From IMG/VR virus record IMGVR_UViG_2529292906_000017: DNA of 18,305 bases; one strand, 5' to 3'. Positions 3,307 through 18,305 of this stretch are shown here, piece after piece; the stretch's first letter is position 1; each line of letters starts with the position of its first letter. The notes below the pieces were generated by a model, which had not been told where the DNA came from, did not search any database, and worked only from the letters and a program-made list of their open reading frames with translations. The position numbers and the translations under genes were made by a program. This DNA comes from a virus. Its lineage: Duplodnaviria > Heunggongvirae > Uroviricota > Caudoviricetes.

Positions 3307-3882
3307 CTACGGCAGTGCTGGCCATTCAATATCCGGTGCAGTTGATGTATCAACACGGTTCAGCAACACCCGATACTTTTTCCAGGCTTCCAGCAACAAG
3401 GTTTCTTCCTCCGTTGCGATCTCCAGATCCACAGCATCCTGAAGCGGCGCTATATGCTCACTGGCTATCTGCATCAGGCTGTTTTTTGTTTCTTCCGCCT
3501 CCCGGATCCGGAACAGTTTTTCTGCTTCCGTATCCTTCACCCAGGCTGTGCCGTTCCACTTCTGATATTCCCCTCCCGGCGATAACCAGGTAACATTTTC
3601 CGGTAACGGACCGAGTTCAGAAATAAATAACGCGTCGCCGGAAGCCACGTCATAAACCGTTTTACCCCGATGATCTTCAACGAGATGCCACGATGCCTCA
3701 TCACTGTTGAAAACAGCCACGAAGCCTGCCGGAATATCTGGCGGTGCAATATCGGTACTGTTTGCTGGCAGACCTGTATGAGGCGGAATATATGCGTCAC
3801 CTTCACCAATAAATTCATTAGTTCCGGCCAGCAGATTATAAATTTTTATGGTCCGTGGTTGTTCACTCATTCTGAATGCCAT
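3307..3882 (-). CDS. tfaQ: Tail fiber assembly protein (lambda Tfa-like)
   Basis: 191-aa ORF, near-identical over its length to lambda Tfa as recalled ([24 protein letters not shown]...). Start overlaps the stop of the upstream stf fragment. Confidence 0.85.
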
Positions 3883-4190
3883 TACGCAAGCCTCACAATA
3901 TAGTTAAATGCGATGTTTTTGACGGTGTTTTCCGCGTTACCAGCAGCGTTAACGGTGATGGTATGTCCATGTGAACCAATCGCAACGGAGTGCGTATGAG
4001 CACCAATACCGACAGTATGTGCGTGTGCACCTGCGCTTGCAGCAGTACCCGATACAGAGTGCGTATGAGCGCCTGCAGAAGAAGTGTTAACACTGTATTT
4101 AGAATAATCAGGTGATCCACTTCCCGGAGCACCACTGGAACCACCTGAAACAAATGTCATCGAATGGGTATGTGCACCGGCTGTCCCCAT
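3882..4190 (-). pseudogene. stfQ: C-terminal remnant of side tail fiber protein (Stf) with GAHTHS repeats
   Basis: 102-aa ORF with repeated GAHTHS motifs, ending [11 protein letters not shown] as in lambda Stf C-terminus. Only about 100 codons remain; the upstream part is replaced by a J fragment in another frame. Confidence 0.75.
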
Positions 4191-5437
4191 GCATTTACCG
4201 CCCGGACTGTCAGCCTGTAATTTCCCAGCGCCAGCTGCGTGAAGCGATATGTGGTTTCCGTCGTCCGGGCCGTGCTGACCAACCGCTCACTGCCGTCGTC
4301 CGCTGCCACGGTCAGGCGAAGCATAAAGCTCACCCCCTTCACCACCTTCGGCGTGTCCCAGCGCGCCAGCACCTGGTATTCCCCGCTGTCTGCGGTGACT
4401 TCTGCGGTCAGGTGCTGAACTGCTGGCGGCGTGACACCATTCACCGTGCCGCTCTGGTCACCGTCAAAGTGCGCCCCGTTATCCACGATGGCTTCTTTCT
4501 CCGGTACATGCTGCACGGCAGTGATGGCATACGTACCGTCATCGTTCTCACGGATACTCACACAGCGGAACAGGCGCTGACGCAGCGTCGGCAGCTTCAG
4601 CCCCCACACGCTGTACTCGGCAACGCCGTCAGGAACCCGGCTCACTTTCACCTTCACGCCGTCGGTGACGGACTGGACCTCCACGCTCACCGGATTACCC
4701 TGCCCGTCAACCAGGCTTATCAGCGTGGTGCCGGAGGATGGCAGCGTGATTTCACGGTCGAGCGTCAGTGTCCGCGTCTGGCTGTTCACCGCCAGCACGC
4801 GCCCGCCGATGCTGATCCCCGCATAGTCATCATCACAGATTTCAATGACATCACCTGGTACATGGCGAAGCCCTTCGGCACCCACGCTGAAGTCCACGGT
4901 CTGCGTTTCCAGCAGTTCCGTTTTAATCAGCCACAGCCCGGCTCGGTGCGCCTGCCCCCGCCTGGTACAGCCAAAGGCATCCATCTTCGTGACGTTACGA
5001 CCGTAACGGGCAATGGCCTGCGTGTCCTCCACAAGCTCTGTCGCCGTCTCCCAGCCGTTATCCGGGTCAATCCAGTTCACCTCAACGGCATTATGGCGGT
5101 CCTTCAGGGCGCTGAAGCTGTAGCGGAACGGCGCGCCATCATCCGGCATCACCACATTACTGCGGTTATAGGTCCACACCTTATCTGATGGTCGGTCCTG
5201 CACGAACGTCAGCGTCTGCCCGTTCCATACCGGCATACAGCGCATCGCCGAGCAGAAATCACTGAGAACATCCCACGCCTTACGCTGTGTGGTCAGCCAG
5301 GCATTACAGGTGATGCGCGGCTCCGTGCCGCCAAAACCGTCCGGCACCGACTGGTCGCAACACTGGCCGATGACATACAGCGCCCATTTATCCACATCTG
5401 CCGCACCAAGACGTTTACCCATGCCGTAGCGCGGGTG
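4157..5437 (-). pseudogene. Internal fragment of tail tip / host specificity protein J (lambda gpJ-like)
   Basis: Translation from HPRYGMGKRLGAADVDKWALYVIGQ to [11 protein letters not shown] matches lambda J mid-region closely. The first 29 residues of the 455-aa track ORF are an out-of-frame read of Nu1 DNA, and the C-terminus diverges 7 codons before the stop. Confidence 0.8.
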
Positions 5438-5672
5438 GCTGGAGATCTGTCTCGCTGGCCTGCCGCAGTTCTTCAACTTCCCGGCGCAGCTTTTCGTTCT
5501 CAATTTCAGCATCCCTTTCGGCATACCATTTTATGACGGCGGCAGAATCATAAAGCACCTCATTACCCTTGCCACCGCCTCGCAGAACGGGCATTCCCTG
5601 TTCCTGCCAGTTCTGAATGGTACGGATACTCGCACCGAAAATGTCAGCCAGCTGCTTTTTGTTGACTTCCAT
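5415..5672 (-). pseudogene. nohQ: Terminase small subunit Nu1, N-terminal DNA-binding fragment fused into J-derived sequence
   Basis: Translation MEVNKKQLADIFGASIRTIQNWQEQGMPVLRGGGKGNEVLYDSAAVIKWYAERDAEIENEKLRREVEELRQASETDLQP matches lambda Nu1 residues 1-79; homology ends at about 5436 and the frame then reads into J DNA. Confidence 0.8.
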
Positions 5673-5679
5673 TGTTCAT

Positions 5680-5880
5680 TCCACGGACAAAAACAGAGAA
5701 AGGAAACGACAAAGGCCAAAAAGCCCGCTTTCAGCACCTGTCGTTTCCTTTCTTTTCAGGGGGTATTTTAAATAAAAACATTAAGTTACGACGAAGAAGA
5801 ACGGAAACACCTTAAACCGGAAAATTTTCATAAATAGCGAAAACCCGCGAGGTCGCCGCCCCGTAACCTGTCGGATCACC
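5680..5880 (-). other. Lambda-type cos site (cosB, cosN at 5850..5861, cosQ-side flank)
   Basis: Reverse complement of 5673..5861 is GGGCGGCGACCTCGCGGGTTTTCGCTATTTATGAAAATTTTCCGG...GTCCGTGGAATGAACA, i.e. the lambda left end with about 5 substitutions and no indels as I recall it, directly upstream of the Nu1 start. Confidence 0.75.
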
Positions 5881-6060
5881 GGAAAGGACCCGTAAAGTGA
5901 TAATGATTATCATCTACATATCACAACGTGCGTGGAGGCCATCAAACCACGTCAAATAATCAATTATGACGCAGGTATCGTATTAATTGATCTGCATCAA
6001 CTTAACGTAAAAACAACTTCAGACAATACAAATCAGCGACACTGAATACGGGGCAACCTC

Positions 6061-6294
6061 ATGTCAACGAAGAACAGAACCCGCAGAACAACAACCCGCA
6101 ACATCCGCTTTCCTAACCAAATGATTGAACAAATTAACATCGCTCTTGAGCAAAAAGGGTCCGGGAATTTCTCAGCCTGGGTCATTGAAGCCTGCCGCCG
6201 GAGACTGTGCTCAGAAAAAAGAGTTTCTTCTGAAGCAAACAAAGAAAAGAGTGACATTACTGAATTGCTCAGAAAACAGGTCAGACCTGATTGA
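6061..6294 (+). CDS. ynfO: Small ribbon-helix-helix-like prophage protein (77 aa)
   Basis: 77-aa ORF MSTKNRTRRTTTRNIRFPNQMIEQINIALEQKGSGNFSAWVIEACRRRL; basic N-terminus plus beta-strand/helix pattern typical of Arc/CopG-type folds. Symbol from Qin gene order; fold assignment is inference. Confidence 0.6.
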   Translation: MSTKNRTRRTTTRNIRFPNQMIEQINIALEQKGSGNFSAWVIEACRRRLCSEKRVSSEANKEKSDITELLRKQVRPD

Positions 6295-6351
6295 AGCAAT
6301 TTAGATAATCGTGCAGACTACGCCCCCTCATATCACATGGAAGGTTTATCT

Positions 6352-6762
6352 ATGGATCAGGTAGTCATTTTTAAACAAATATTTGATAAAGTTCGAAACG
6401 ATTTAAACTATCAATGGTTTTATTCTGAGCTAAAACGTCACAATGTCTCACATTACATTTACTATTTAGCCACAGAGAATGTTCATATTGTATTAAAAAA
6501 TGATAATACAGTGTTATTAAAGGGCCTAAAAAACATTGTGTCTGTCAAATTTTCAAAGGATAGGCATCTTATAGAAACGACCTCTAATAAGCTGAAATCC
6601 AGAGAGATCACATTTCAGGAATACAGAAGAAACCTTGCTAAAGCAGGAGTTTTTCGGTGGGTTACAAATATCCACGAACAAAAAAGATATTACTATACCT
6701 TTGATAATTCATTACTATTTACTGAAAGCATCCAGAAAACTACACAGATCTTACCACGCTAA
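6352..6762 (+). CDS. ydfO: DUF1398-family prophage protein
   Basis: 136-aa product from the second Met ([30 protein letters not shown]...); the track ORF 6337..6762 adds 5 codons. Placement after ynfO and before gnsB matches Qin order. Confidence 0.7.
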
Positions 6763-6913
6763 ACCATAACGTCCGGCTTCTCTCACTCCTGAGCCGGACT
6801 GCATTGGTTTAATAAAAACCATCAACAATTGTGATTTAGATATTCGGAACCATTCAAATATAACAAAACCCCGTAAAAACGAGGTTTATGGATAAATTTT
6901 ATTATTGAATACA

Positions 6914-7086
6914 TCAGATTAAATTAATCTTGACATCATAGCTTTCAAGACCCGTCATTTTTTCCCGTGCGGTAAACTGAATACTGGTAACTTCTTTCCC
7001 GGTCTTTTTCTTAAGTTCAATAATTTTTTTGTTATATATTCAGAAATATCTGCTTCTGCTTTTGTTTTTAAGTTTTCAATATTCAT
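6914..7086 (-). pseudogene. gnsB: GnsA/GnsB-family protein with an apparent 1-bp contraction in a homopolymer
   Basis: From ATG at 7084..7086 the frame gives MNIENLKTKAEADISEYITKK and stops at 38 aa. A second frame reads IIELKKKTGKEVTSIQFTAREKMTGLESYDVKINLI to stop 6914..6916. They join into a 57-aa GnsB only if the T7 run 7024..7030 were T8. Confidence 0.65.
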
Positions 7087-7257
7087 CATTTCCTCTTTTA
7101 GTCTGTTATGACTTTCCAGTTACACAGTAAGTCGATTATATGGTGCAAACGTGTAAAAGATAAGATGAAACATCGCAATAATCAACATACGATAGTCTAA
7201 ATTTTACACAAACAGACAAAGAGAATTTTCCTGAATTATCAATGCAATAGCATCAAA

Positions 7258-7412
7258 TCAACTCAAGAGCCTTATTGCTGCTTCCAGAATTTCTTCTGAA
7301 GTAACATGTCGATCCGCGGCTACATAAATGACTTTATGATCTCCGGTCAGAGATGGAAACCCTGCGGCCATTACAGTAAGGTGTGTTTTTCGCCATTTGG
7401 ATATTCACGCAT
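7258..7412 (-). pseudogene. ynfN: YnfN-like cold-shock-induced small protein with an apparent 1-bp contraction in a homopolymer
   Basis: ATG at 7410..7412 gives MREYPNGEKHTLL then stop. With one extra A in the run 7386..7390 the frame reads MREYPNGEKTHLTVMAAGFPSLTGDHKVIYVAADRHVTSEEILEAAIRLLS (51 aa), stop 7258..7260. Confidence 0.5.
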
Positions 7413-7529
7413 GATGGTGTTAACTCCAGTCATCGCTGGCACTACCACTGCTGGTTCAGAGTTAAAAAAACTATGATTTTTTCATGATGTTACCGTAGTA
7501 TGTGAGTATCCATCGAATAGACACCAAGC

Positions 7530-7560
7530 AAAAAAGCTCCCGAAGGAGCCTTCATTTTCA
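7530..7560. terminator. Hairpin with flanking A and T runs (possible bidirectional terminator downstream of cspI)
   Basis: AAAAAAGCTCC-CGAA-GGAGCC followed by TTCATTTTCACTTTTTT; on the minus strand the stem is followed by TTTTTTGC. Confidence 0.4.
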
Positions 7561-7756
7561 CTTTTTTAAATCCAACGACAGACGGCTGGCATTTAAGTAT
7601 TGTGAAATATTATCAAATGTAATCATCATTGATTTACAAAAGATACATTTTGCCCCGAAAGGATTCATGTCAGAAACATCAAAAGATGATGTTCTATACT
7701 GGGAACCATGACAACACGGGCATCTAAAGTGAATATGGTTTGTAATATTGTCTACC

Positions 7757-7969
7757 TCAAAGCGCCACTACATGAACAGCGGCAGGACCTTTAGGTCCGT
7801 TCTCAATACCAAATTCAACTTCCTGATTCTCAGTTAATGTTTTGAAATCGTTGCTCTGAATTGCTGAGAAATGGACAAACACATCTTTGCTGCCATCTTT
7901 CGGCGTGATGAAACCAAAACCTTTTTCAGGGTTAAACCATTTCACTAAACCAGTCATTTTGTTAGACAT
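7757..7969 (-). CDS. cspI: CspA-family cold shock protein
   Basis: 70-aa [41 protein letters not shown] with RNP1/RNP2-like motifs (KGFGFI, VFVHF). Confidence 0.9.
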
Positions 7970-8330
7970 AATTATTACCTTTTGAAGAAATTAGCCCTTG
8001 GGCAGAATGGTCCGAAAAAAATATCAGAGAGAAAAACCAACAAGGAAATCTCAAGAGGTACAAATAATAAAATTATAACAATGACTGCTTCAGATAAATT
8101 TGTAACAAACCAGAACACCATTAACGCATGATTAACCACCCATAGCAAGGATTACTTTTGTAAAGAAAAACACAGCAATGAAAGAATAGCTTTATTTATT
8201 AATAAAACGTGTCATTCTGATTAAGACCTTTTATCTTACCCTTAAGATTTCAGGAATTTTGGCTCATGGAAGAGTCCTTTTTATTTAAATTTTACATTCC
8301 GCGATGTAAATGTTCCGATTTAATATTACC

Positions 8331-9353
<1,023 letters not shown>

Positions 9354-9357
<4 letters not shown>

Positions 9358-9665
9358 AGATATTTATGATGAGGACGCTCGTGCTTATTGGCAGGATTTT
9401 CAATCTTAAAGGAGTACTGATGCTGCAGATAAGACTCAACTTTTTCTGACAATTTTTCTGCTACTTCCAGGAAGACTTGCCGGACGCTCCTTCTGGCTGC
9501 TGCCTCATAAAACTCCAGCGCAGCTCCTTCAACACGGTCCATGGCGACATCCAGGTCAAAAATTTCACCGTCAAAGCGTTCTTTGTCCTGTAAGGCTACA
9601 GTTACCGTAACTTTATTCTCAAAATTACGGACTCCTTTCACAACCAGTTCATAGTCTTGAGTCAT
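9354..9665 (-). CDS. ydfR: DUF1327-family prophage protein located between holin and endolysin
   Basis: 103-aa ORF MTQDYELVVKGVRNFENKVTVTVALQDKERFDGEIF...; 4-bp overlap with the endolysin start. Function unknown. Confidence 0.7.
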
Positions 9666-9669
9666 TGGA

Positions 9670-9885
9670 TTACTCTCCTCTCGCAGCCTTACGCCTGTCT
9701 TCTTTAATCTTGAAATAAAGATTTGTCAGATACGTCAGCAGGCCAAAAACCAGGCTACCCAGCACACCGATTGCAGCCCACTGTGACGGAGTTACTTTAT
9801 CGAGTAACTGCAATGCCCAGAAACCAGCATTACCCGCCGATGTGCCATAGGCAACACCTGTTGTTAACTTATCCATTGATTTCAT
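9670..9885 (-). CDS. essQ: Class II holin (phage 21 S-like pinholin) with dual-start motif
   Basis: 71-aa product [71 protein letters not shown]; two TM helices, Met1/Met4 dual start, charged C-terminus. The track ORF 9670..9960 extends upstream. Confidence 0.85.
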
Positions 9886-10104
9886 ATCCTCACCCCGATG
9901 TACACGGATGGTGCAATATGTTTGAAAAGATCGGAGTCTACGGGGTAGTTTTGACAGCACACGTTGTTCTCAACGGCGCTAAAAAAACATACACATTAAA
10001 AATGTGGGTAATTATTTTGAAAGAAAGTCATATATAAAATAATAATACGAGAAATGTTTTCATATTTAGTGTACTGTATACGGCCATTTATACAGGAAAA
10101 GCCT

Positions 10105-10275
10105 ATGTCAGAACGTAAAAACTCAAAATCACGCCGTAATTATCTCGTTAAATGTTCCTGCCCAAACTGCACCCAAGAGTCAGAACACAGTTTTTCAAGA
10201 GTACAAAAAGGTGCCCTTTTGATCTGCCCTCATTGCAACAAAGTATTCCAGACAAATCTTAAAGCTGTAGCCTGA
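10105..10275 (+). CDS. Small zinc-ribbon-like protein (56 aa), unassigned
   Basis: ATG at 10105 preceded by AGGAAAAG; MSERKNSKSRRNYLVKCSCPNCTQESEHSFSRVQKGALLICPHCNKVFQTNLKAVA has CxxC...CxxC spacing. The track ORF starts upstream at 10054. Confidence 0.45.
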   Translation: MSERKNSKSRRNYLVKCSCPNCTQESEHSFSRVQKGALLICPHCNKVFQTNLKAVA

Positions 10276-10333
10276 TTGATTTTATTAGTAACAAGTATTT
10301 TTTATATTTTAATAATATATTTAAAGCAGATAA

Positions 10334-10362
10334 TAAAAAACCCGCCTGAGCGGGTTTGAGAT
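10334..10362. terminator. Rho-independent terminator-like hairpin (stronger on the minus strand)
   Basis: AAAAAA-CCCGC-CTGA-GCGGG-TTT; reverse complement gives stem plus T6. Confidence 0.45.
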
Positions 10363-10517
10363 TGTGGTGCTTTTTGTGGGAGTCATCCACTTACGCACTT
10401 TGTTTTGCCATGCCAGCAGTTAGCTTCTGCTGTAAAACTATTCATGCAGCAAACCTGCACTTCACCACAATGGTTAGCATACTTTTCCTGATTAAGATTT
10501 TGGGTAATGACTCCAAC

Positions 10518-10895
10518 TTATTGATAGTGTTTTATGTTCAGATAATGCCCGATGACTTTGTCATGCAGCTCCACCGATTTTGAGAACGACAGCGACTTCC
10601 GTCCCAGCCGTGCCAGGTGCTGCCTCAGATTCAGGTTATGCCGCTCAATTCGCTGCGTATATCGCTTGCTGATTACGTGCAGCTTTCCCTTCAGGCGGGA
10701 TTCATACAGCGGCCAGCCATCCGTCATCCATATCACCACGTCAAAGGGTGACAGCAGGCTCATAAGACGCCCCAGCGTCGCCATAGTGCGTTCACCGAAT
10801 ACGTGCGCAACAACCGTCTTCCGGAGCCTGTCATACGCGTAAAACAGCCAGCGCTGGCGCGATTTAGCCCCGACGTATCCCCACTGTTCGTCCAT
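10518..10895 (-). CDS. insB: IS1 InsB transposase domain (InsAB' C-terminal part)
   Basis: [65 protein letters not shown]... matches IS1 InsB. Confidence 0.8.
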
Positions 10896-10914
10896 TTCCG
10901 CGCAGACGATGACG

Positions 10915-11214
10915 TCACTGCCCGGCTGTATGCGCGAGGTTACCGACTGCGGCCTGAGTTTTTAAATGGCGGAAAATCGTGTTGAGGCCAACGCCCATAA
11001 TGCGGGCAGTTGCCCGGCATCCAACGCCATTCATGGCCATATCAATGATTTTCTGGTGCGTACCGGGCTGAGAGGCGGTGTAAGTGAACTGTAGTTGCCA
11101 TGTTTTACGGCAGTGAGAGCAGAGATAGCGCTGATGTCCGGCAGTGCTTTTGCCGTTACGCACCACGCCTTCAGTAGCGGAGCAGGAAGGACATCTGATG
11201 GAAATGGAAGCCAC
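10915..11214 (-). CDS. insA: IS1 InsA with altered C-terminus from a shortened A-run at the frameshift site
   Basis: [43 protein letters not shown]... is InsA (zinc finger plus HTH), but the ORF ends ...[18 protein letters not shown] (99 aa) instead of ...RHLKNSGRSR (91 aa) because TTTAAAAACTC has A5 where IS1 has A6C. Confidence 0.8.
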
Positions 11215-11413
11215 GCAAGCACCTTAAAATCACCATCATACACTAAATCAGTAAGTTGGCAGCATTACCAGATTTTGCCAAATATGCTAGCCATTGTTTC
11301 ATGTATTGGACCTCCTTACTTTTTATTAAAGAGATCCAATATTCACTACTCTGTCCGTATCTCTACTCAGGCATCAGCCTTCTTCGTTATCGTATACAGA
11401 CGAGCGATGAATT

Positions 11414-11629
11414 TTAATCAGTAATGATGACATTTGCTGCTGCAGGACCTTTAGCACCACTCTCTATAGAGAAGGTAACCTTTTGACCTTCAAATAAGGT
11501 TCGATAATTATCATTCTGAATCGCAGAAAAATGCACAAACACATCTTTACTACCATCAACAGGAGAAATAAAGCCGAAACCTTTATCAGCGTTAAACCAT
11601 TTTACTAAACCAGTCATTTTATTTGACAT
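11414..11629 (-). CDS. cspB: CspA-family cold shock protein
   Basis: 71-aa [41 protein letters not shown]..., paralogous to the ORF at 7757..7969. Confidence 0.9.
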
Positions 11630-11929
11630 TCTACATTCCTTAACTTGAGCCTTTCGGCATAAATGGTTTGCATAACAGAAACGACTTCGTACTTAATTGG
11701 AGAGACTCAAAGAAGGAATAAGTGAATAACACCTGAAATGAGAACTGCTTTAGTAAACTACTTCGTATATCGTCTGTTCTTCAAACCGACGCAATCATTA
11801 ACGCATAGTTGAACATATGAAGCAATGTTTATTTTAGACATCCAGCCATCTTCAACCCCATCAAAAAACTATAGCTTTCTTCAGGAACGTGTGTATAGTG
11901 CGCCAAGTTATCAGTATTAAGGAATTTTT

Positions 11930-12142
11930 TTGTCCCGTAAAATGACAGGAATTATCAAAACCTTTGACGGCAAAAGCGGCAAGGGTCTTATCACCCCATC
12001 CGATGGTCGTATCGATGTCCAGCTTCATGTTTCAGCGCTCAATCTCCGCGATGCAGAAGAAATTACCACCGGATTACGCGTGGAATTTTGCCGGATAAAT
12101 GGTCTGCGTGGCCCTTCAGCTGCCAATGTTTACCTTTCATGA
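11930..12142 (+). CDS. cspF: CspA-family cold shock protein paralog, apparent TTG start
   Basis: 70-aa ORF (M)[43 protein letters not shown]...; first codon at 11930 is TTG, with AAGGA upstream. Confidence 0.8.
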
Positions 12143-12196
12143 GCTATATTAAAGCTTTAATTTCAGGCCCCATCGGATCACACATGGAGAGTTTTT

Positions 12197-12286
12197 ATGA
12201 ATAACCCCGTCTGTCTTGATGACTGGTTGATTGGCTTTAAAAGCTTATGCTGTACTTTGGCCGTAATAGCTCTGCTAATAATATAA
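12197..12286 (+). CDS. Candidate small membrane peptide (29 aa), unassigned
   Basis: ATG at 12197 preceded by GGAGAG; [29 protein letters not shown] has a hydrophobic C-terminus. Very short; could be chance. Confidence 0.2.
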
Positions 12287-12440
12287 TAAGCAGACTCATT
12301 GTGTTTAGGGACATTGTACTGGAAGAAAACATTTTAAACATCAGGCAAATAACCAAGTCACCAGCTAAATAATAAGTTAACAGACATGAGTCCCGGGATG
12401 AGATTCAACATTACCATTGCCCCATTTAAAGCACAAAACC

Positions 12441-12464
12441 CGCTCATCAGCGGGTTTTCTACTT
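12441..12464 (-). terminator. Terminator hairpin about 100 nt downstream of the Q gene (tR'-like)
   Basis: AAACCCGCT-CATC-AGCGGGTTTT with T-rich tails on both strands. Confidence 0.5.
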
Positions 12465-12502
12465 TTTCTTAACGTCGGGTATACAAAGCCCATCGTTGAA
12501 AA

Positions 12503-12531
12503 ATTTTATCCATATTTTTTGAAAAATGCAA
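12503..12531 (-). promoter_or_regulatory. Putative Q-dependent late promoter (pR'-like)
   Basis: On the minus strand TTGCAT (12526..12531), a 17-nt spacer, then TAAAAT (12503..12508), immediately downstream of the Q stop and upstream of the terminator hairpin. Arrangement resembles lambdoid pR'-tR'. Confidence 0.35.
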
Positions 12532-12562
12532 ACATCATGTCGCCATCTTCAGCAAAAATCAT

Positions 12563-13315
12563 TTATCTCGTCACCTTCCTCAATTGCGCTTCCGCGTATG
12601 CTTCTTCCTGCCAGCACTTTGTTACCAGTTTACCAATGACGTCCGCATACCCCTTATACCACTGATAATCGGTCAGGTCTGGTACCAGCTTCTGGACATG
12701 ACGTCGTGCCAGCGTGGTCGGTAAACGACTAAACCGGTTTCCATTACAACGCCCACAAATCTTATATACCGGTACGCCATGAAACCGGGTTCTTTTTTCA
12801 TCCAGAACAATCCCTTTACCCTTACACCCTCTGCACGCTGTGCTGGCTTCGCCCTTACCATGGCAATGCTGACATAGTTCCTTCACCCATTCTTCCTTGA
12901 TTACAGATTCCCCGCGTCTGTAGTGTTTCACCACTTCGCGCAATACATTATAAAATCCCGTACCTGAACAATGCTCACAGCGAGCCTTACTTGCCGCAGA
13001 CCTGGAGTAATCAGCAAAGGCAAAACTCACGAGGTAAGGAATAATCTGTAACCGGATTTCTTCACTCAATTTGTTCAATGTCGGGTTATCCAGTGCCATC
13101 GCGTAATTTAGCAGGCCTTCAATCGCAAACTGAGGGTCCTGAACACCAACTTTTGCCAGAAATAAGGCCAACCCAAGTGGTGCTTTCGACTGCACCATCC
13201 CCTGCGCTGCCATTACATCCGTAATTGTTAAACAACCGGTGCCTGTCGCTGGAGCGTCATCGCTCAATTTTGGAGATTTTGGGGAGTAATATTTTGGTAA
13301 GGCTTCAAGGTTCAT
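12563..13315 (-). CDS. quuQ: Late-gene antiterminator Q (phage 82-type)
   Basis: 250 aa from MNLEALPKYY...; Cys-rich zinc-binding region CEHCSGTGF...CQHCHGKGE...CRGCKGKG...CGRCNGN. The track ORF 12563..13345 adds 10 upstream codons. Confidence 0.85.
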   Translation of the reverse strand: MNLEALPKYYSPKSPKLSDDAPATGTGCLTITDVMAAQGMVQSKAPLGLALFLAKVGVQDPQFAIEGLLNYAMALDNPTLNKLSEEIRLQIIPYLVSFAFADYSRSAASKARCEHCSGTGFYNVLREVVKHYRRGESVIKEEWVKELCQHCHGKGEASTACRGCKGKGIVLDEKRTRFHGVPVYKICGRCNGNRFSRLPTTLARRHVQKLVPDLTDYQWYKGYADVIGKLVTKCWQEEAYAEAQLRKVTR

Positions 13316-13328
13316 GCTCGTTCTCCAC

Positions 13329-14417
13329 TTACGCCAGTACGCCAATTGCCAGCGCGCGATCGATAAAACGAAATATCAGCTCCAGTTGGGAGCCATACTT
13401 ATCTTCAAATGCCACTGTATCCGTATGCAGCTCGTTGTGATGCTTTCTGCACAAAGGCAACACAAAGAGATCATGTGCTTTTGTTCCCATTCCGCCCTGC
13501 CCGTGACCAATCAGATGATGCGGATCGTCGGCTGGCATACCGCAGCAAGCACACGGCTGTGTCTTAACCCAACGTGTGTATTTCTCCTTAACCCAGCGGC
13601 GACGTTTAGGCAGCTTCATGAAAGATTCCGGAGACTCTGGATCAACGGTGATGCTTACCACCGTCTTTTCCTGTGGTGATTTTTGTTGCTGGTGGGCGTA
13701 AGGCAACGGTGCAAGATTTTTTGTGCGTTGTTTCAATATGCTGGTGGCGGTCTGCTCTCCCGGTACGATGTCGCTTTCGCGGTACACCGAGCAGATTTTT
13801 TCCGCTGGTAATCCCAGCGAACGACGCGATACAGCCTCAGGTAGTGCATCCACCACCTGATTGCAGACCGCCCACCAGGATAATTCAGCCAAAGATAATT
13901 CCCGCTCCTGCGTACCGCTTATTGCGTGACGGATGACGTCAATCACCCATGCTGTCAGATTTTGTTGAGCAAGCAGCTCCAGTGATTCCGATGTCTGGTC
14001 ACGCAGTTGGTTGTCGCAGTGCCAGCACAACACCATTGCGCCGGTACCATAACGGTGAATGACTGTTTCAGTGTGATGGTAATCGCCATTAGGCCACTGG
14101 CAGGATGTAACATGACGTAATAGCCAGTCGGACAATGCGCCAACGCCGCCAGCAGCACGAATCACCCGTTCGTTACTAAAAAACGGCAGCAATGTTTTGT
14201 CTTCCGCCAGCGGCTGGCGAACGGCAGGAACGACTCCGGATGGCAGATTACGCATGCTTTTTGGTTCCGGTTCCACCAGCACTCGAGGATTATGAAATAT
14301 CTGTATGGATTCACGGCCCGGCTTAAGGACCACCAGCCCAAGCTCAGGCACCAGAACAGGTCTAAGTAATACCCGCACGTTACCTCCAGATCCGTTGCTG
14401 GAAAGTGCGGGACGCAC
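13329..14417 (-). CDS. ydfU: DUF968-family prophage protein with Cys/His cluster
   Basis: 362-aa track ORF; C-terminal region TQPCACCGMPADDPHHLIGHGQGGMGTKAHDLFVLPLCRKHHNELH suggests a metal-binding (HNH-like) motif. True start uncertain (Met1 or Met55). Confidence 0.7.
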   Translation of the reverse strand: MRPALSSNGSGGNVRVLLRPVLVPELGLVVLKPGRESIQIFHNPRVLVEPEPKSMRNLPSGVVPAVRQPLAEDKTLLPFFSNERVIRAAGGVGALSDWLLRHVTSCQWPNGDYHHTETVIHRYGTGAMVLCWHCDNQLRDQTSESLELLAQQNLTAWVIDVIRHAISGTQERELSLAELSWWAVCNQVVDALPEAVSRRSLGLPAEKICSVYRESDIVPGEQTATSILKQRTKNLAPLPYAHQQQKSPQEKTVVSITVDPESPESFMKLPKRRRWVKEKYTRWVKTQPCACCGMPADDPHHLIGHGQGGMGTKAHDLFVLPLCRKHHNELHTDTVAFEDKYGSQLELIFRFIDRALAIGVLA

Positions 14418-14658
14418 GTGGTGGGCGTTCGGAATAAGGCAGCCTGACAGAGATTATCCAGTGCCGATAGTCGAGACTGAGAGCTTTCTTAACCTCGAAC
14501 CCGCGCCTGCGGTAAGAATGAATCAGCCATTCGGCCTGTTCTGCAGTGCATGGAGGGTGCTGGAACCATTCAGACTTGAATGCGTGAGAATACCGCCCGT
14601 GCGTGCAGGCAAGAACGGGCGAATTATCAGAATTGTAATATTTTGCGTTGCGTGCCAT
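14380..14658 (-). CDS. Hypothetical 92-aa protein overlapping the ydfU start, unassigned
   Basis: ATG preceded by GGAGAAAAC; MARNAKYYNSDNSPVLACTHGRYSHAFKSEWFQHPPCTAEQAEW... contains a C-x-H...H...C arrangement. Overlaps ydfU by 38 nt in a different frame. Confidence 0.4.
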   Translation of the reverse strand: MARNAKYYNSDNSPVLACTHGRYSHAFKSEWFQHPPCTAEQAEWLIHSYRRRGFEVKKALSLDYRHWIISVRLPYSERPPRASRTFQQRIWR

Positions 14659-14724
14659 CGGTTTTCTCCGGTGGCACGGTGTTACTCAGCGGGAGTTCAG
14701 CCCCGCGCAAGATTGTAGATGAGT

Positions 14725-14976
14725 TTATTCTCCTGAAAAAGCAGAAAAGCCAGCTTTTATTCCGATCTCTTTCAATGCCTGTAATGAAGTGACAAACTCA
14801 CCTTCGCGCAAGATAAATCCGTCCGTGACCCGAGCATCCACAAAATTAATTAACGCAGCCCCATTCTTTCGCAAACACATAATGCGGTAATGACTAACAA
14901 GATTTCCATTTTCAACGCACACAGCATAGAGGCCATCTTCACAAAAAATTTTACGCAGTTCTTCGATGTTCATCAT
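14725..14976 (-). CDS. rem: Rem-like 83-aa prophage protein
   Basis: 83-aa ORF MMNIEELRKIFCEDGLYAVCVENGNLVSHYRIMCLRKNGAALINFVDAR... between ydfU and hokD; symbol assigned from position and length only. Confidence 0.45.
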   Translation of the reverse strand: MMNIEELRKIFCEDGLYAVCVENGNLVSHYRIMCLRKNGAALINFVDARVTDGFILREGEFVTSLQALKEIGIKAGFSAFSGE

Positions 14977-15087
14977 CAGAATCCTTCCGGATAATTAGCT
15001 CTCCCCTTTAAGGGACCATCCCTCTTATCCCTGCGCGCTACTTAAGTATTTTTGATTCTATTCCGGCACCGTCCAGAACTTCAAACG

Positions 15088-15121
15088 CGTTGAAAATAAA
15101 AACAAAAACCCGCCGAAGCGG
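15088..15121 (-). terminator. Rho-independent terminator downstream of hokD
   Basis: Minus strand reads AACCCGC-TTCG-GCGGG followed by TTTTTGTTTTTATTTT; lies 70 nt past the hokD stop. Confidence 0.55.
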
Positions 15122-15192
15122 GTTAAGTGCGGGTGCGTTGAGGATGCCTGCCACATCAGAGGTGGCGAGGGATTTCTCCCCCGCCGGGTCTC

Positions 15193-15348
15193 TTACTCCT
15201 CAGGTTCGTAAGCTGTGAAGACAGCGACCTCCGTCTGGCCGGTTCGGATTCGTACCTCGCAGAGGTCTTTCCTCGTTACCAGTGCCGTCACTATGACGGT
15301 TAAACAGATGACGATCAGGGCGATTAACATCGCCTTTTGCTGCTTCAT
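15193..15348 (-). CDS. hokD: Hok-family type I toxin
   Basis: Reverse-complement translation MKQQKAMLIALIVICLTVIVTALVTRKDLCEVRIRTGQTEVAVFTAYEPEE (51 aa), GGAG upstream; not in the ORF track (under 60 aa). Confidence 0.85.
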   Translation of the reverse strand: MKQQKAMLIALIVICLTVIVTALVTRKDLCEVRIRTGQTEVAVFTAYEPEE

Positions 15349-15419
15349 AGCCTGCTTCTCCTGTCAACGCAAAGCAGAAGTGTCACCTTCGGTGCGAAAC
15401 AGAGATGTCATGCTTTGGT

Positions 15420-15707
15420 TCAGAGAATGCGTTTGACCGCCTCGCTATATACTTCCGAGCGTTCTCTTTTCCCAACAGAAATCACGAAAACGACAACTTT
15501 CTCGTCTATAACCTGGTATACAAGGCGATAGCCTGAAGACCGGAGCTTAATCTTGTAACAATCAGGCATACCACGGAGCTTGTTTGCTTCAATCCGGGGT
15601 GACTCAAGTACTTCAACCAGCTTCTTTTTCAACTGTTCACGTACCGTCGAGCCCAGCTTTCGCCATTCCTTTAGTGCCCGCTCGTCAAAATCCAGAAAAT
15701 ACGCCAT
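15420..15707 (-). CDS. relE: RelE mRNA interferase toxin (type II TA)
   Basis: 95-aa ORF MAYFLDFDERALKEWRKLGSTVREQLKKKLVEVLESPRIEANKLRGMPDCYKIKLRSSGYRLVYQVIDEKVVVFVISVGKRE. Confidence 0.9.
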   Translation of the reverse strand: MAYFLDFDERALKEWRKLGSTVREQLKKKLVEVLESPRIEANKLRGMPDCYKIKLRSSGYRLVYQVIDEKVVVFVISVGKRERSEVYSEAVKRIL

Positions 15708-15946
15708 CAGAGTTCATCCAGCGTCACACGTACTGGCTTAGGATTACGAAGCCGTTCTTTCACTATCTCCACAAGTTCAGCATCTTCATCACTCAGGAGT
15801 GTCTGTTTGAACGGCAAGCGTTCATTGTCAGCGATATACTCGAGCATGAGACGAAGCGCTTCAGAAGGAGTTACACCCATTTTTTCAAGCGCGGCGTAAG
15901 AACGCGCTTTAAGTTCATCGTCAATACGCAGGTTAATGCTACCCAT
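15707..15946 (-). CDS. relB: RelB antitoxin (ribbon-helix-helix)
   Basis: 79-aa ORF MGSINLRIDDELKARSYAALEKMGVTPSEALRLMLEYIADNERLPF...; 1-bp overlap with the relE start. Confidence 0.9.
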   Translation of the reverse strand: MGSINLRIDDELKARSYAALEKMGVTPSEALRLMLEYIADNERLPFKQTLLSDEDAELVEIVKERLRNPKPVRVTLDEL

Positions 15947-15957
15947 GTCTTACACCT

Positions 15958-15983
15958 CTTGTAATTACAAATGTCATTACAAG
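15958..15983 (-). promoter_or_regulatory. relBE operator (relO-like inverted repeat) at the relB promoter
   Basis: CTTGTAATTACAAATGTCATTACAAG contains inverted TTGTAAT/ATTACAA repeats immediately upstream of the relB SD (AGAGGTG). Confidence 0.6.
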
Positions 15984-16149
15984 TATCGCACTACAACATG
16001 CTTAGGGCAAGTCACGAAGGAAGTCAGAAAGTAGTCGTAAGAACGGTGATCACTGTCCGCTTTGTGCCAGGAGCAGCCATTGCTAAGTCCATCCTGTATT
16101 GTGCAGGTCAGCTCGTTTTTAAAGAGTCCGGCCATCATCTTACTGGTAC

Positions 16150-17037
16150 AGACACCATATACTTTGTGACGGTCTGAATCGCCACGGATAATCTAGACAC
16201 TTCCGAGCCGTTGATAATACTGGTTTTCATATTCTGTCGGTGACATCTGATCGCTGGAACCATGCCGACGCTTACTGTTATAAAACATTTCGATGTAATC
16301 AAAAATATCGCTGCGGGCTTCTTCCCGCGTTCCGTAGATCTTTTTCTTTATCCGTTCACGTTTCAACAACTGGAAAAAACTTTCTGCAACCGCATTATCA
16401 TGGCAGTTACCGCGACGGCTCATGCTACCCTCCAGGCCGTGTGATTTCAGGAACGACTGCCACTCATGGCTTGTGTACTGACTGCCCTGATCCGAATGAA
16501 CCAGCACCTTTTTTTCGGGATTACGCCGCCATACAGCCATCAGCAGTGCGTTCAGGACAATGTCCTTTGTCATCCGGGATTGCATGGACCAGCCGATAAT
16601 TTTGCGTGAGAACAGATCAACAACAACGGCAAGATACAGCCAGCCTTCGTGGGTCCTGATGTAGGTTATGTCCGTTACCCAACGCTCATCAGGAGCATCC
16701 GGATTGAACTGTCGCTGGAGCCTGTTGGGTGACACGATACTGGCCTCGCCTTTACGTGCCCGCGGGCTTCGGTATCCGACCTGAGCCTTTATTCCGACAC
16801 GTTTCATCAGTCTCCAGACTCTGTTTACTCCGCACTGTTGCCCGCTGTCACGCAGATCCAGATGGATTTTGCGATAACCATAGACGCATCCCGATTCCAG
16901 CCAGAACTGTTTAATCTGTCCTGTCAGTCTCAGGTCTGCCTGATGGCGTTGTGAATGCGGCTGCTGAAGCCAGGCGTAAAAACCACTGGGATGAACATCC
17001 AGCACCCGACAGAGCAGGCGAACAGGCCAGCAACAGG
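16150..17037 (-). mobile_element. IS600-like IS3-family element, truncated where the next IS begins; outer boundary approximate
   Basis: Contains a complete orfB; its reading frame continues open upstream to 17037, where the TGAACCGCCCCGG terminus of the next IS begins, so orfA and the other end lie outside the window. Confidence 0.7.
16193..17005 (-). CDS. IS3-family transposase OrfB (IS600-like), DDE integrase domain
   Basis: 270-aa ORF (GTG start) with ...WVTDITYIRTHEGWLYLAVVVDLFSRKIIGW...HSDQGSQYTS...CHDNAVAESFF, the DDE motif region of IS3-family transposases. Confidence 0.85.
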   Translation of the reverse strand: MLDVHPSGFYAWLQQPHSQRHQADLRLTGQIKQFWLESGCVYGYRKIHLDLRDSGQQCGVNRVWRLMKRVGIKAQVGYRSPRARKGEASIVSPNRLQRQFNPDAPDERWVTDITYIRTHEGWLYLAVVVDLFSRKIIGWSMQSRMTKDIVLNALLMAVWRRNPEKKVLVHSDQGSQYTSHEWQSFLKSHGLEGSMSRRGNCHDNAVAESFFQLLKRERIKKKIYGTREEARSDIFDYIEMFYNSKRRHGSSDQMSPTEYENQYYQRLGSV

Positions 17038-17091: not shown

Positions 17092-17418
17092 ATGACTAAA
17101 AATACTCGTTTTTCCCCCGAAGTCCGTCAGCGGGCGATTCGTATGGTTCTGGAAAGTCAGGATGAATATGACTCACAGTGGGCGGCAATTTGTTCCATTG
17201 CCCCAAAGATTGGCTGTACGCCGGAGACTCTGCGTGTCTGGGTTCGCCAGCATGAGCGGGATACCGGGGGCGGTGATGGTGGGCTCACCACCGCTGAACG
17301 TCAGCGTCTGAAAGAGCTGGAACGTGAAAATCGTGAACTGCGCCGCAGTAACGATATCCTTCGCCAGGCTTCCGCTTATTTTGCGAAGGCGGAGTTCGAC
17401 CGCCTCTGGAAAAAATGA
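17092..17418 (+). CDS. IS3-family transposase OrfA (HTH plus leucine zipper)
   Basis: 108-aa [60 protein letters not shown]...[27 protein letters not shown]. Confidence 0.85.
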
Positions 17419-18305
17419 TGCCACTGCTGGATAAGCTGCGTGAGCAGTACGGGGTCGGACCGGTATGCAGCGAACTGCATATTGCCCCGTCAACGTATTA
17501 CCATTGTCAGCAACAGCGACATCATCCGGATAAACGCAGTGCCCGTGCGCAGCACGACGACTGGCTGAAGAGAGAGATACAGCGCGTATACGATGAAAAT
17601 CATCAGGTGTACGGTGTGCGTAAAGTCTGGCGTCAGTTGTTACGGGAAGGAATCAGGGTGGCCAGATGTACAGTGGCGCGCCTCATGGCGGTTATGGGAC
17701 TTGCCGGTGTTCTCCGGGGTAAAAAGGTCCGCACTACCGTCAGCCGGAAAACCGTTGCCACAGGTGACCGCGTAAACCGTCAGTTCGTGGCAGAACGTCC
17801 TGACCAGCTGTGGGTGGCTGATTTTACTTACGTCAGCACATGGCAGGGCTTCGTCTATGTGGCGTTTATCATTGATGTGTTTGCCGGATACATCGTGGGG
17901 TGGCGGGTCTCATCGTCTATGGAAACGACATTCGTGCTGGATGCGCTGGAGCAGGCGTTGTGGGCCCGTCGTCCGTCTGGCACCATCCATCACAGCGATA
18001 AAGGCTCTCAGTATGTGTCACTGGCCTATACGGAGCGACTAAAAGAAGCCGGATTACTGGCATCAACAGGGAGTACAGGCGACTCGTATGACAACGCGAT
18101 GGCTGAGAGCATCAATGGTCTTTACAAAGCGGAGGTAATACACCGTAAGAGCTGGAAAAACCGTGCAGAAGTGGAACTGGCCACACTAACGTGGGTGGAC
18201 TGGTATAACAATCGACGATTGCTGGGAAGGCTGGGCCATACTCCTCCGGCAGAAGCAGAAAAAGCTTATTATGCTTCCATCGGAAACGATGATCTGGCAG
18301 CCTGA
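17415..18305 (+). CDS. IS3-family transposase OrfB (IS629-like), DDE integrase domain
   Basis: 296-aa ORF with ...[31 protein letters not shown]...[10 protein letters not shown]...[16 protein letters not shown]. Confidence 0.85.

Follow-up and report, generated by a model that had tools for sequence, protein, structure and literature searches.

Does the short segment directly after the Q antiterminator gene of the IMG/VR virus record IMGVR_UViG_2529292906_000017 hold a late promoter (pR') and its terminator (tR'), and if so, to which of the known Q systems do they belong? The stretch analyzed, called here the window, is 18,305 nucleotides (nt) long, and the segment lies on its minus strand between positions 12531 and 12431. 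It is very probably the late control cassette of a Qin-type lambdoid prophage, of the lambda family and homologous to pR'-tR' of phage lambda. Over 2.1 kb around the site the window and the Qin cryptic prophage of E. coli K-12 strains share 99.9-100% identity. The pR'-tR' layout had been proposed in a first-pass annotation of the window, and it is borne out by homology to lambda, by the linkage of the architecture to Q, by conservation of the module with a covarying terminator, and by an RNA 3' end mapped at tR' in E. coli MG1655.

The elements of the cassette are listed below in the order of transcription. Transcript positions are counted from the predicted +1, the first A of AACGAT (12497); given the shorter spacing of this copy, the start may instead be the next A.

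12563..13315, minus strand: the Q antiterminator gene (ydfT/quuQ), 250 amino acids, from the RefSeq annotation; its TAA stop is at 12565..12563.
12526..12531, minus strand: the pR' -35 element TTGCAT, 31 nt past the Q stop and homologous to lambda TTGACT.
12509..12525, minus strand: the 17-nt spacer TTTTCAAAAAATATGGA, a candidate Q-binding element (QBE) by its position and conservation.
12503..12508, minus strand: the pR' -10 element TAAAAT, homologous to lambda TAAATT.
12498..12502, minus strand: the discriminator TTTTC, 5 nt long through a one-T deletion (6 nt in MG1655, lambda and all relatives).
12489..12497, minus strand: the sigma70-dependent pause element AACGAT with its GGG discriminator-like triplet, the same as lambda pR' +1..+9.
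12481..12488, minus strand: positions +10..+17, CTTTGTAT, with the pause predicted at about +16/+17 (12482/12481).
12435..12458, minus strand: the tR' hairpin AAAACCCGCU-GAUG-AGCGGGUUUU, a 10-bp stem with a GAUG loop, followed by GUGCUUU.
12431..12434, minus strand: the last part of the U-rich tail, UUUUGUGC; an RNA 3' end maps to 12431.

The sigma70-like promoter that the first-pass annotation had placed directly after Q is present at 12531..12503 (-), with TTGCAT and TAAAAT separated by 17 nt. Promoter- and terminator-like matches alone are no better than chance here. A scan of the region returned 13 promoter-like sites against 7.9 +/- 2.4 expected by chance and 7 terminator-like sites against 5.9 +/- 2.1. 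The finding rises above chance because the RNA fold has a z-score of -6.1, the pause element AACGATGGG is unique and sits at the lambda position, and the module is conserved in relatives. The promoter scan itself favoured TTTGCA with an 18-nt spacer (9/12 consensus overall); the register given above is the right one because of its homology with lambda TTGACT-17-TAAATT.

The corresponding lambda sequence (NC_001416) reads TTGACT-TATTGAATAAAATTGGG-TAAATT-TGACTC-AACGATGGGTTAATTCG, and Qin aligns with it without gaps save one base. The two -35 elements have TTG..T in common, the -10 elements agree at 5/6 positions, the spacers at 11/17, and AACGATGGG is identical. The minus strand continues after the TTTTC discriminator as AACGATGGGCTTTGTATACCCGACGTTAAGAAAAAGTAG, so that AACGATGGG directly follows the discriminator; it is found once in the 18.3-kb window, precisely where lambda has it. 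Wild-type AACGAT at lambda pR' +1..+6 is a -10-like element that is re-bound by sigma70, and the GGG "discriminator-like" sequence strengthens the lambda pause element (PMC4005639). Sigma engages at an RNA length of 13 and the complex scrunches to the +16/+17 pause, which is set by an elemental pause sequence with G at -10, a pyrimidine at the RNA end and then G (PMC5001585). G8 and T17 of the Qin sequence fit the G(-10)/Y(-1) pattern and both are conserved in relatives. The lambda QBE is located between -35 and -10 (PMC4914094), and by position and conservation the spacer is the candidate Q-binding element of Qin as well.

The resemblance to lambda pR'-qut-tR' extends to the layout. Both have a promoter right after a PF03589-family Q gene (the two Q proteins are 41% identical), 6 nt from the -10 element to the pause element in all normal copies, an intrinsic terminator ahead of the late genes, and lysis genes downstream on the same strand. 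They also differ in several ways. The -35 element is TTGACT in lambda and TTGCAT in Qin, the spacers differ at six positions with a core of TTGAAT in lambda and TTCAAA in Qin, and the TTGACT-like -35 repeat that immediately precedes the lambda pause element is missing from Qin. The lambda terminator lies at about +162..+194 and yields the 194-nt 6S RNA, whereas that of Qin is at +40..+67 with an RNA of about 67 nt. The Qin-type Q has an extra zinc-ribbon-like insert of 47 amino acids, the window copy is spaced by 5 nt where lambda has 6, and the cargo between tR' and the holin gene measures 0.4 kb in lambda and 1.8-2.6 kb in Qin.

The Q protein places the system in the lambda family. QuuQ matches Pfam PF03589 (E=4e-54), aligns end to end with lambda Q (7UBM_Q, phmmer, E=4e-36), and is 93-94% identical to Q of SfV and of a Salmonella phage. 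Its Pfam matches are PF03589 and a DnaJ-type zinc finger, with none to PF06323. PF03589 is the Q-lambda family, PF06530 that of Q21 and PF06323 that of Q82 (PMC9388147). The first-pass annotation had named phage 82 pR'/qut for comparison, which is the wrong reference because QuuQ belongs to PF03589. Phage 82 does have the same general parts: a Q gene, a sigma70 promoter, a sigma-dependent pause close to the promoter and a terminator. Since the layout of Q, promoter and terminator is common to all three Q families (PMC9388147), it would suit a phage-82-type cassette equally. Its Q is from an unrelated family, and its element is not homologous to that of the window. The phage 82 pause is at +25/+26, and its element lies 9 bp downstream of the lambda position and resembles the -10 consensus more closely (PMC5001585), whereas the window has the lambda sequence at +1..+6. 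A phage-82-type pR'/qut is ruled out by the Q family and the position of the pause element, and we consider its probability negligible.

QuuQ residues ~117-163 form the insert relative to lambda Q. It carries a second CxxC...CxxC pair, which accounts for the DnaJ-type zinc-finger match, and sits just before the zinc-ribbon "arm" that contacts DNA in lambda Q. The insert may alter how a Qin-type Q reaches its binding site.

To determine how closely the promoter and pause element are tied to Q, we scanned a viral contig collection for TTGNNT-17-TANNNT-6-AACGATGGG, a pattern independent of any protein. All 80 scan loci that were inspected have an open reading frame (ORF) of the Q-lambda family ending 24-42 nt upstream. 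As a control the same pattern with 5 nt in place of 6 was run as a complete scan. It gave 39 hits, and in no case does a Q relative lie in the 1.2 kb upstream. The composite motif thus marks the Q-lambda class specifically. Four Q subtypes are represented among the scan loci, each with its own type of spacer, as expected if the spacer holds the Q-binding element:

Lambda-type Q (207 amino acids): spacer T[AT]TTGAATAAA[AG]TTGGG.
Qin-type Q (250 amino acids): spacer TTTTCAAAAAATATGGA.
280-amino-acid-type Q: spacer TATTGAATGGAATGGAC.
A Q type with 65% identity to lambda Q over the ~35 C-terminal residues available: spacer AATTGAATAAAATGGAC.

Conservation within the Qin type was measured on 79 loci found by the Q protein alone and read at fixed offsets from the Q stop. 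These gave 30 distinct sequences, with one decayed copy (L082) set aside. The -35 element is invariant at 5/6 positions and the -10 element at 4/6 (positions 1, 2, 5 and 6; the forms are TAAAAT, TAAGAT or TAGGAT). The spacer is invariant at 11/17, more than an ordinary spacer would be, with variation at spacer positions 12, 13 and 17. The discriminator is always 6 nt long and is invariant at 2/6. Positions +1..+9 are invariant at 7/9, +10..+17 at 4/8 including T17, and +18..+30 at 3/13, while the 31 nt from the Q stop to the -35 element are invariant at 14/31. The promoter hexamers, the spacer and +1..+9 are therefore far more constant than their flanks. The pause element varies in relatives only to AATGAT, which is nearer to the -10 consensus, and to GACGAT, and both variants retain the critical A2 and T6.

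SfV, Ayreon, mEp460, PhiR42_1 and the Stx2c phages are close counterparts. They encode a Qin-type Q of 250 amino acids (92-100% identical) followed by the same -35 element, spacer, pause element and terminator position. Their modules differ from the window in having 6-nt spacing, in many cases a TAAGAT or TAGGAT -10 element and G at +18, and in their cargo, which includes a methylase, tRNAs and stx2c among others and in none of them IS1. Similarity of Qin to most phage relatives ends at 12435, where the hairpin ends, and what lies beyond the terminator in different relatives amounts to at least eight unrelated sequences, including the stx2c genes. Q, pR' and tR' thus move together as a module, with the site of cargo insertion directly behind. 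Decayed copies are also found among the IMG/VR loci. L082 has a degenerate -10 element (AAAGAG) and an altered pause element (AATGATGAG), the terminator of L062 is broken by a recombination junction, and L063 has an interrupted U-tract.

A 51-amino-acid ORF is annotated over the same stretch in PhiR42_1 (L006, coding sequence at 4170..4325), and its translation has no internal stop, so the stretch might instead code for a small protein. That ORF has a TTG start and spans the promoter, the hairpin and the point at which relatives diverge. The one-base deletion of the window and 1-nt length differences among relatives would shift the frame, and conservation tracks the regulatory blocks, not codons. 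The "hypothetical protein" that PhiR42_1 has annotated across pR', pause element and tR' is most probably an over-call, its ORF not being conserved in frame, and a coding role for the stretch is extremely improbable.

The terminator that had been predicted about 50 nt past the promoter is present as a hairpin and U-tract, though it extends 10 nt further than 12441, to 12431. Folding of the RNA 12497..12425 gives -30.4 kcal/mol (z = -6.1 relative to shuffled controls, as noted above). A hairpin and U-tract are found at +38..+64 in nearly all Qin-type variants, with stems of CCCGC/GCGGG, CCUCGC/GCGGGG, CCUCGC/GCGAGG, ACCGC/GCGGU and ACUCGC/GCGAGU. The RNAalifold consensus of tR' has 8 pairs, 4 of them with compensatory double changes, and the SfV and Ayreon records annotate a terminator at the same position. 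Apart from lambda, the Q-lambda subtypes typically have a short leader, with the terminator at +29..+66.

An RNA end has been mapped at this terminator. The curated dominant 3' ends in the Term-seq data for MG1655 include one on the minus strand at 1,642,356, classed as "orphan", with 103,591 reads in LB at an optical density of 0.4 (Adams et al. 2021, PMC7815308). The end has 55,368 reads in a second sheet, and the coordinate occurs three times in the three-sheet file (PMC7815308). SgrS has 6,222 and SokC 66,698 reads in the same sheet (PMC7815308), so the count at tR' is high relative to both. The flank is printed as ...AAAACCCGCTGATGAGCGGGTTTTGTGC / TTTAAATGGG and matches the window. The convention was checked on SgrS, where the 3'-end nucleotide is position 51 of the 61-nt string. 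The MG1655 end therefore falls at window position 12431, 8 nt past the stem, as expected of intrinsic termination. From the first A of AACGAT to this end the MG1655 RNA would measure 67 nt, and the species that it implies is unannotated. The Cappable-seq supplements have no entry at the pR' coordinate. Rfam at gathering thresholds has no family for the pR'-tR' RNA, its hits in the window being IS009, two cspA thermoregulators and ALIL.

Because Term-seq gives 3' ends only, and this one is 132 nt past the Q stop, the hairpin could be the terminator of the Q operon and the end at 12431 (-) that of the Q (early-right) transcript. A conserved promoter and sigma-dependent pause element would then be left unexplained, and the read count is high for a repressed prophage operon. 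The pR' promoters of lambda and Stx phages are constitutive and give a short terminated RNA in lysogens (PMC7547250). We consider the end of a Q transcript an unlikely source of the reads.

The hairpin could also serve chiefly to terminate the convergent plus-strand unit of cspF and a 29-amino-acid ORF, with the promoter hexamers arising by chance. The scan did call a plus-strand terminator, as TTTTCTACTTTTTC follows the hairpin on that strand, the flanks in Qin-type copies are symmetrical A4/T4 runs, and promoter-like matches occur at chance frequency in the region. The position of the hairpin is nonetheless kept in phages that lack cspF (SfV, Ayreon, Stx2c and Salmonella phages), and the conserved promoter and pause element are found specifically with Q. 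The 3' end was mapped on the minus strand, and the LB and M63 Term-seq data list no plus-strand end there (164237x-164239x); the hairpin thus serves minus-strand RNA under those conditions. A chance promoter beside a cspF terminator is very unlikely, given that the hairpin is kept where cspF is missing and that the mapped end is on the minus strand. A secondary bidirectional role is conceivable: in Qin-type copies with cspF cargo the tR' stem has the symmetrical A4/T4 flanks and TTTTCTACTTTTTC on the plus strand, and has the look of a terminator for both directions.

A second "orphan" minus-strand Term-seq 3' end lies at 12263, which is MG1655 1,642,188, with 87,904 reads in one sheet only. 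It is 168 nt downstream of tR' and 9 nt past an AT-rich hairpin, CTGCTTATTATATTATTAGCAG, and is antisense to the 29-amino-acid ORF. It could be the product of tR' readthrough, a processing product or the end of a separate transcript.

The lambda-type cassette would operate as follows, the start site, pausing, Q binding and Q-dependent readthrough being parts that we infer. RNA polymerase with sigma70 would start from TTGCAT-17-TAAAAT, with +1 at 12497 or the next A. Retained sigma70 would re-bind AACGAT and GGG, and the polymerase would pause at about +16/+17. Without Q it would stop at the hairpin and U-tract (12458..12431) and release an RNA of about 66-67 nt. With QuuQ, binding to the spacer between -35 and -10 and loading onto the paused complex would make the polymerase resistant to terminators. 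It would then continue past tR', antisense over the 29-amino-acid ORF and cspF, and on through cspB, IS1, ynfU and the holin-lysozyme-Rz genes.

Several points weigh against a working lambda-type cassette in the window. The -35 element TTGCAT is weak, with a consensus match of 3/6, and +18 is A where the preferred base is G, as present in most relatives. The Term-seq data come from MG1655 with its 6-nt spacing and not from the 5-nt allele of the window, and a transcript begun further upstream could in principle be the source of the abundant 3' end. The one-T deletion may weaken or abolish Q loading. The cassette may also no longer drive the lysis genes, because the prophage is cryptic and IS1 lies within the late operon.

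The deletion is peculiar to this copy. TAAAAT and AACGAT are separated by the 5 nt TTTTC in the window and by 6 nt in MG1655, in 84 other loci and in lambda, so the pause element has the lambda sequence with spacing one nucleotide short. Of the 1,411 E. coli records matching a 68-nt query, ER1709 alone has the window's sequence and 1,385 have the form one base longer. The complete scan of the viral collection found no 5-nt-spaced Q cassette. Spacing seems constrained, as the sequence of the segment varies freely while its length stays at 6. Loss of one T would shift where transcription starts or make the nascent RNA one base shorter, and would place the Q-binding site one bp nearer to the paused complex. 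Either real mutational decay or a homopolymer sequencing error could account for the missing T.

The window's copy may accordingly be a fossil, a homologue of the lambda-type pR'-tR' that is unresponsive to Q in this strain and retains at most a constitutive short terminated RNA. The rarity of the 5-nt form (1/1,411 E. coli records, 0/84 related loci, no viral Q cassette), the constant length of a segment that is free in sequence, the interruption of the late operon by IS1, and the existence of decayed copies elsewhere (L082, L062 and L063) all fit such a loss. On the other hand, a one-base difference in a T-run may be a sequencing or assembly error, and promoters tolerate 5-nt discriminators. 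IS1 need not block late transcription either, because Q-modified polymerase passes intrinsic terminators as well as Rho-dependent ones (PMC4914094). We regard loss of Q response in this strain as a serious possibility, somewhat short of an even chance.

The short RNA invites comparison with StxS and lambda 6S RNA, which likewise are short RNAs ending at tR' in an uninduced lysogen; the Qin counterpart is the abundant orphan 3' end of MG1655. StxS comes from phages with another Q type and is made as a 258-nt primary transcript that RNase E processes to 74 nt (PMC7547250). It binds Hfq and has known targets (PMC7547250), whereas the U-tail of the Qin RNA is short (UUUUGUGC). We also observed that CGTT at 12471..12474 (-) can pair with the 5' AACG at 12494..12497 (-) to form a 5'-terminal RNA stem. 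CGTT recurs at about +20..+27 in all four Q-lambda subtypes (in lambda, L004 806..810), while the intervening bases vary. The pairing was not seen described in the searched literature. It is conceivable, though doubtful, that the ~67-nt Qin pR'-tR' RNA is an abundant, constitutive and unannotated trans-acting small RNA of E. coli K-12 of the StxS kind, with the AACG/CGUU stem stabilizing its 5' end and tR' doubling as a bidirectional terminator for the cspF unit.

The genes that late transcription would reach are listed in the order in which it would meet them.

12197..12286, plus strand: a 29-amino-acid ORF, convergent cargo, from the RefSeq annotation of the matching stretch.
11930..12142, plus strand: cspF, convergent cargo, from the RefSeq annotation, with a cold-shock (CSD) domain.
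11414..11629, minus strand: cspB, cargo co-oriented with late transcription, with its own cspA-type 5' untranslated region.
10503..11269, minus strand: IS1, between cspB and ynfU, with InsA and IS1-transposase domains in its ORFs.
10105..10275, plus strand: ynfU, from the annotation.
8331..9885, minus strand: the lysis cassette, the presumed target of Q-modified transcription, made up of the next four genes.
9670..9885, minus strand: the holin gene essD (also essQ), from the RefSeq annotation.
9354..9665, minus strand: ydfR, for a DUF1327 protein.
8824..9357, minus strand: the lysozyme gene rrrQ.
From 8331, minus strand: the Rz-like gene rzpQ.

On the other side of the cassette, the RefSeq annotation has ydfU ahead of ydfT in minus-strand order. 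As in lambda, the lysis genes follow the pR' candidate on the same strand. They had been placed 2.6 kb further on, beyond cspF, cspB, IS1 and a small ORF, and so they are: the small ORF is ynfU, and the -10 element is 2,618 nt from the holin start (9885).

A separation of this size is normal among lambdoid phages. The gap between tR' and the holin gene is 0.4 kb in lambda and a Salmonella phage, 1.6 kb in SfV, and 2.3 kb in Ayreon, where it contains a methylase gene and further terminators. PhiR42_1 has the same cspF/cspB cargo as Qin without IS1 and a gap of 1.8 kb, about that of the window if its IS1 is left out (~1.8 kb). An Stx2c phage with the same module has a gap of more than 3.8 kb, holding two ORFs, a methylase gene, tRNA-Met, tRNA-Arg, StxA and StxB.

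The IS1 call is real, as its ORFs carry the InsA and IS1-transposase domains. The element is an extra 767 bp relative to ER1709, with an 8-bp overlap at the junctions, and is likewise absent from MG1655. Its insertion (11270) is only ~30 nt past a very strong Term-seq 3' end downstream of cspB, at about 11299..11301 (-), which is MG1655 1,641,224/1,641,226 and has 0.6-1.2 million reads. Rfam RF01766 matches at 11398..11790, the evidence for the cspA-type 5' untranslated region of cspB. Position 11954 (+) in cspF is A in the window and in ER1709 and G in MG1655, making ATT versus GTT (Ile/Val) near the start of the gene, and is the sole other difference from MG1655 within 11300..13400. The window is rich in insertion sequences. 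An ALIL pseudoknot (a frameshift signal of the IS3 family) lies at 17373..17489 (+) within an orfA/orfB pair, Rfam IS009 matches at 3341..3539 (-), and collinearity with ER1709 is limited to 5436..16174. None of the complete E. coli genomes in the collection searched contains the window unbroken, and the source is therefore an IS-rich E. coli or Shigella-like strain.

A literature search of the searchable papers found nothing specific on quuQ/ydfT or on the Qin late promoter. PMC7547250 mentions Qin only for DicF, PMC6266700 covers Q933 and Q21, and PMC9119081 covers DLP12. The cassette is ordinary in kind, and the textbook picture is unchanged by it. It goes modestly beyond that picture in the ~67-nt RNA implied by Term-seq, in the 6-nt rule set against the 5-nt allele, and in the conserved CGTT near +24.

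With the late switch of Qin assigned to the lambda Q family, the map is useful for work on the Qin lysis genes and on the expression of cspB and cspF. An abundant "orphan" 3' end of MG1655 is best explained as the tR' end of a short late-promoter transcript. The strict 6-nt spacing together with the rare 5-nt allele provides a natural experiment on how tightly Q loading is bound to the geometry of binding site and pause. What the module does also matters for toxin expression, because in some Shiga-toxin phages it precedes stx2c.

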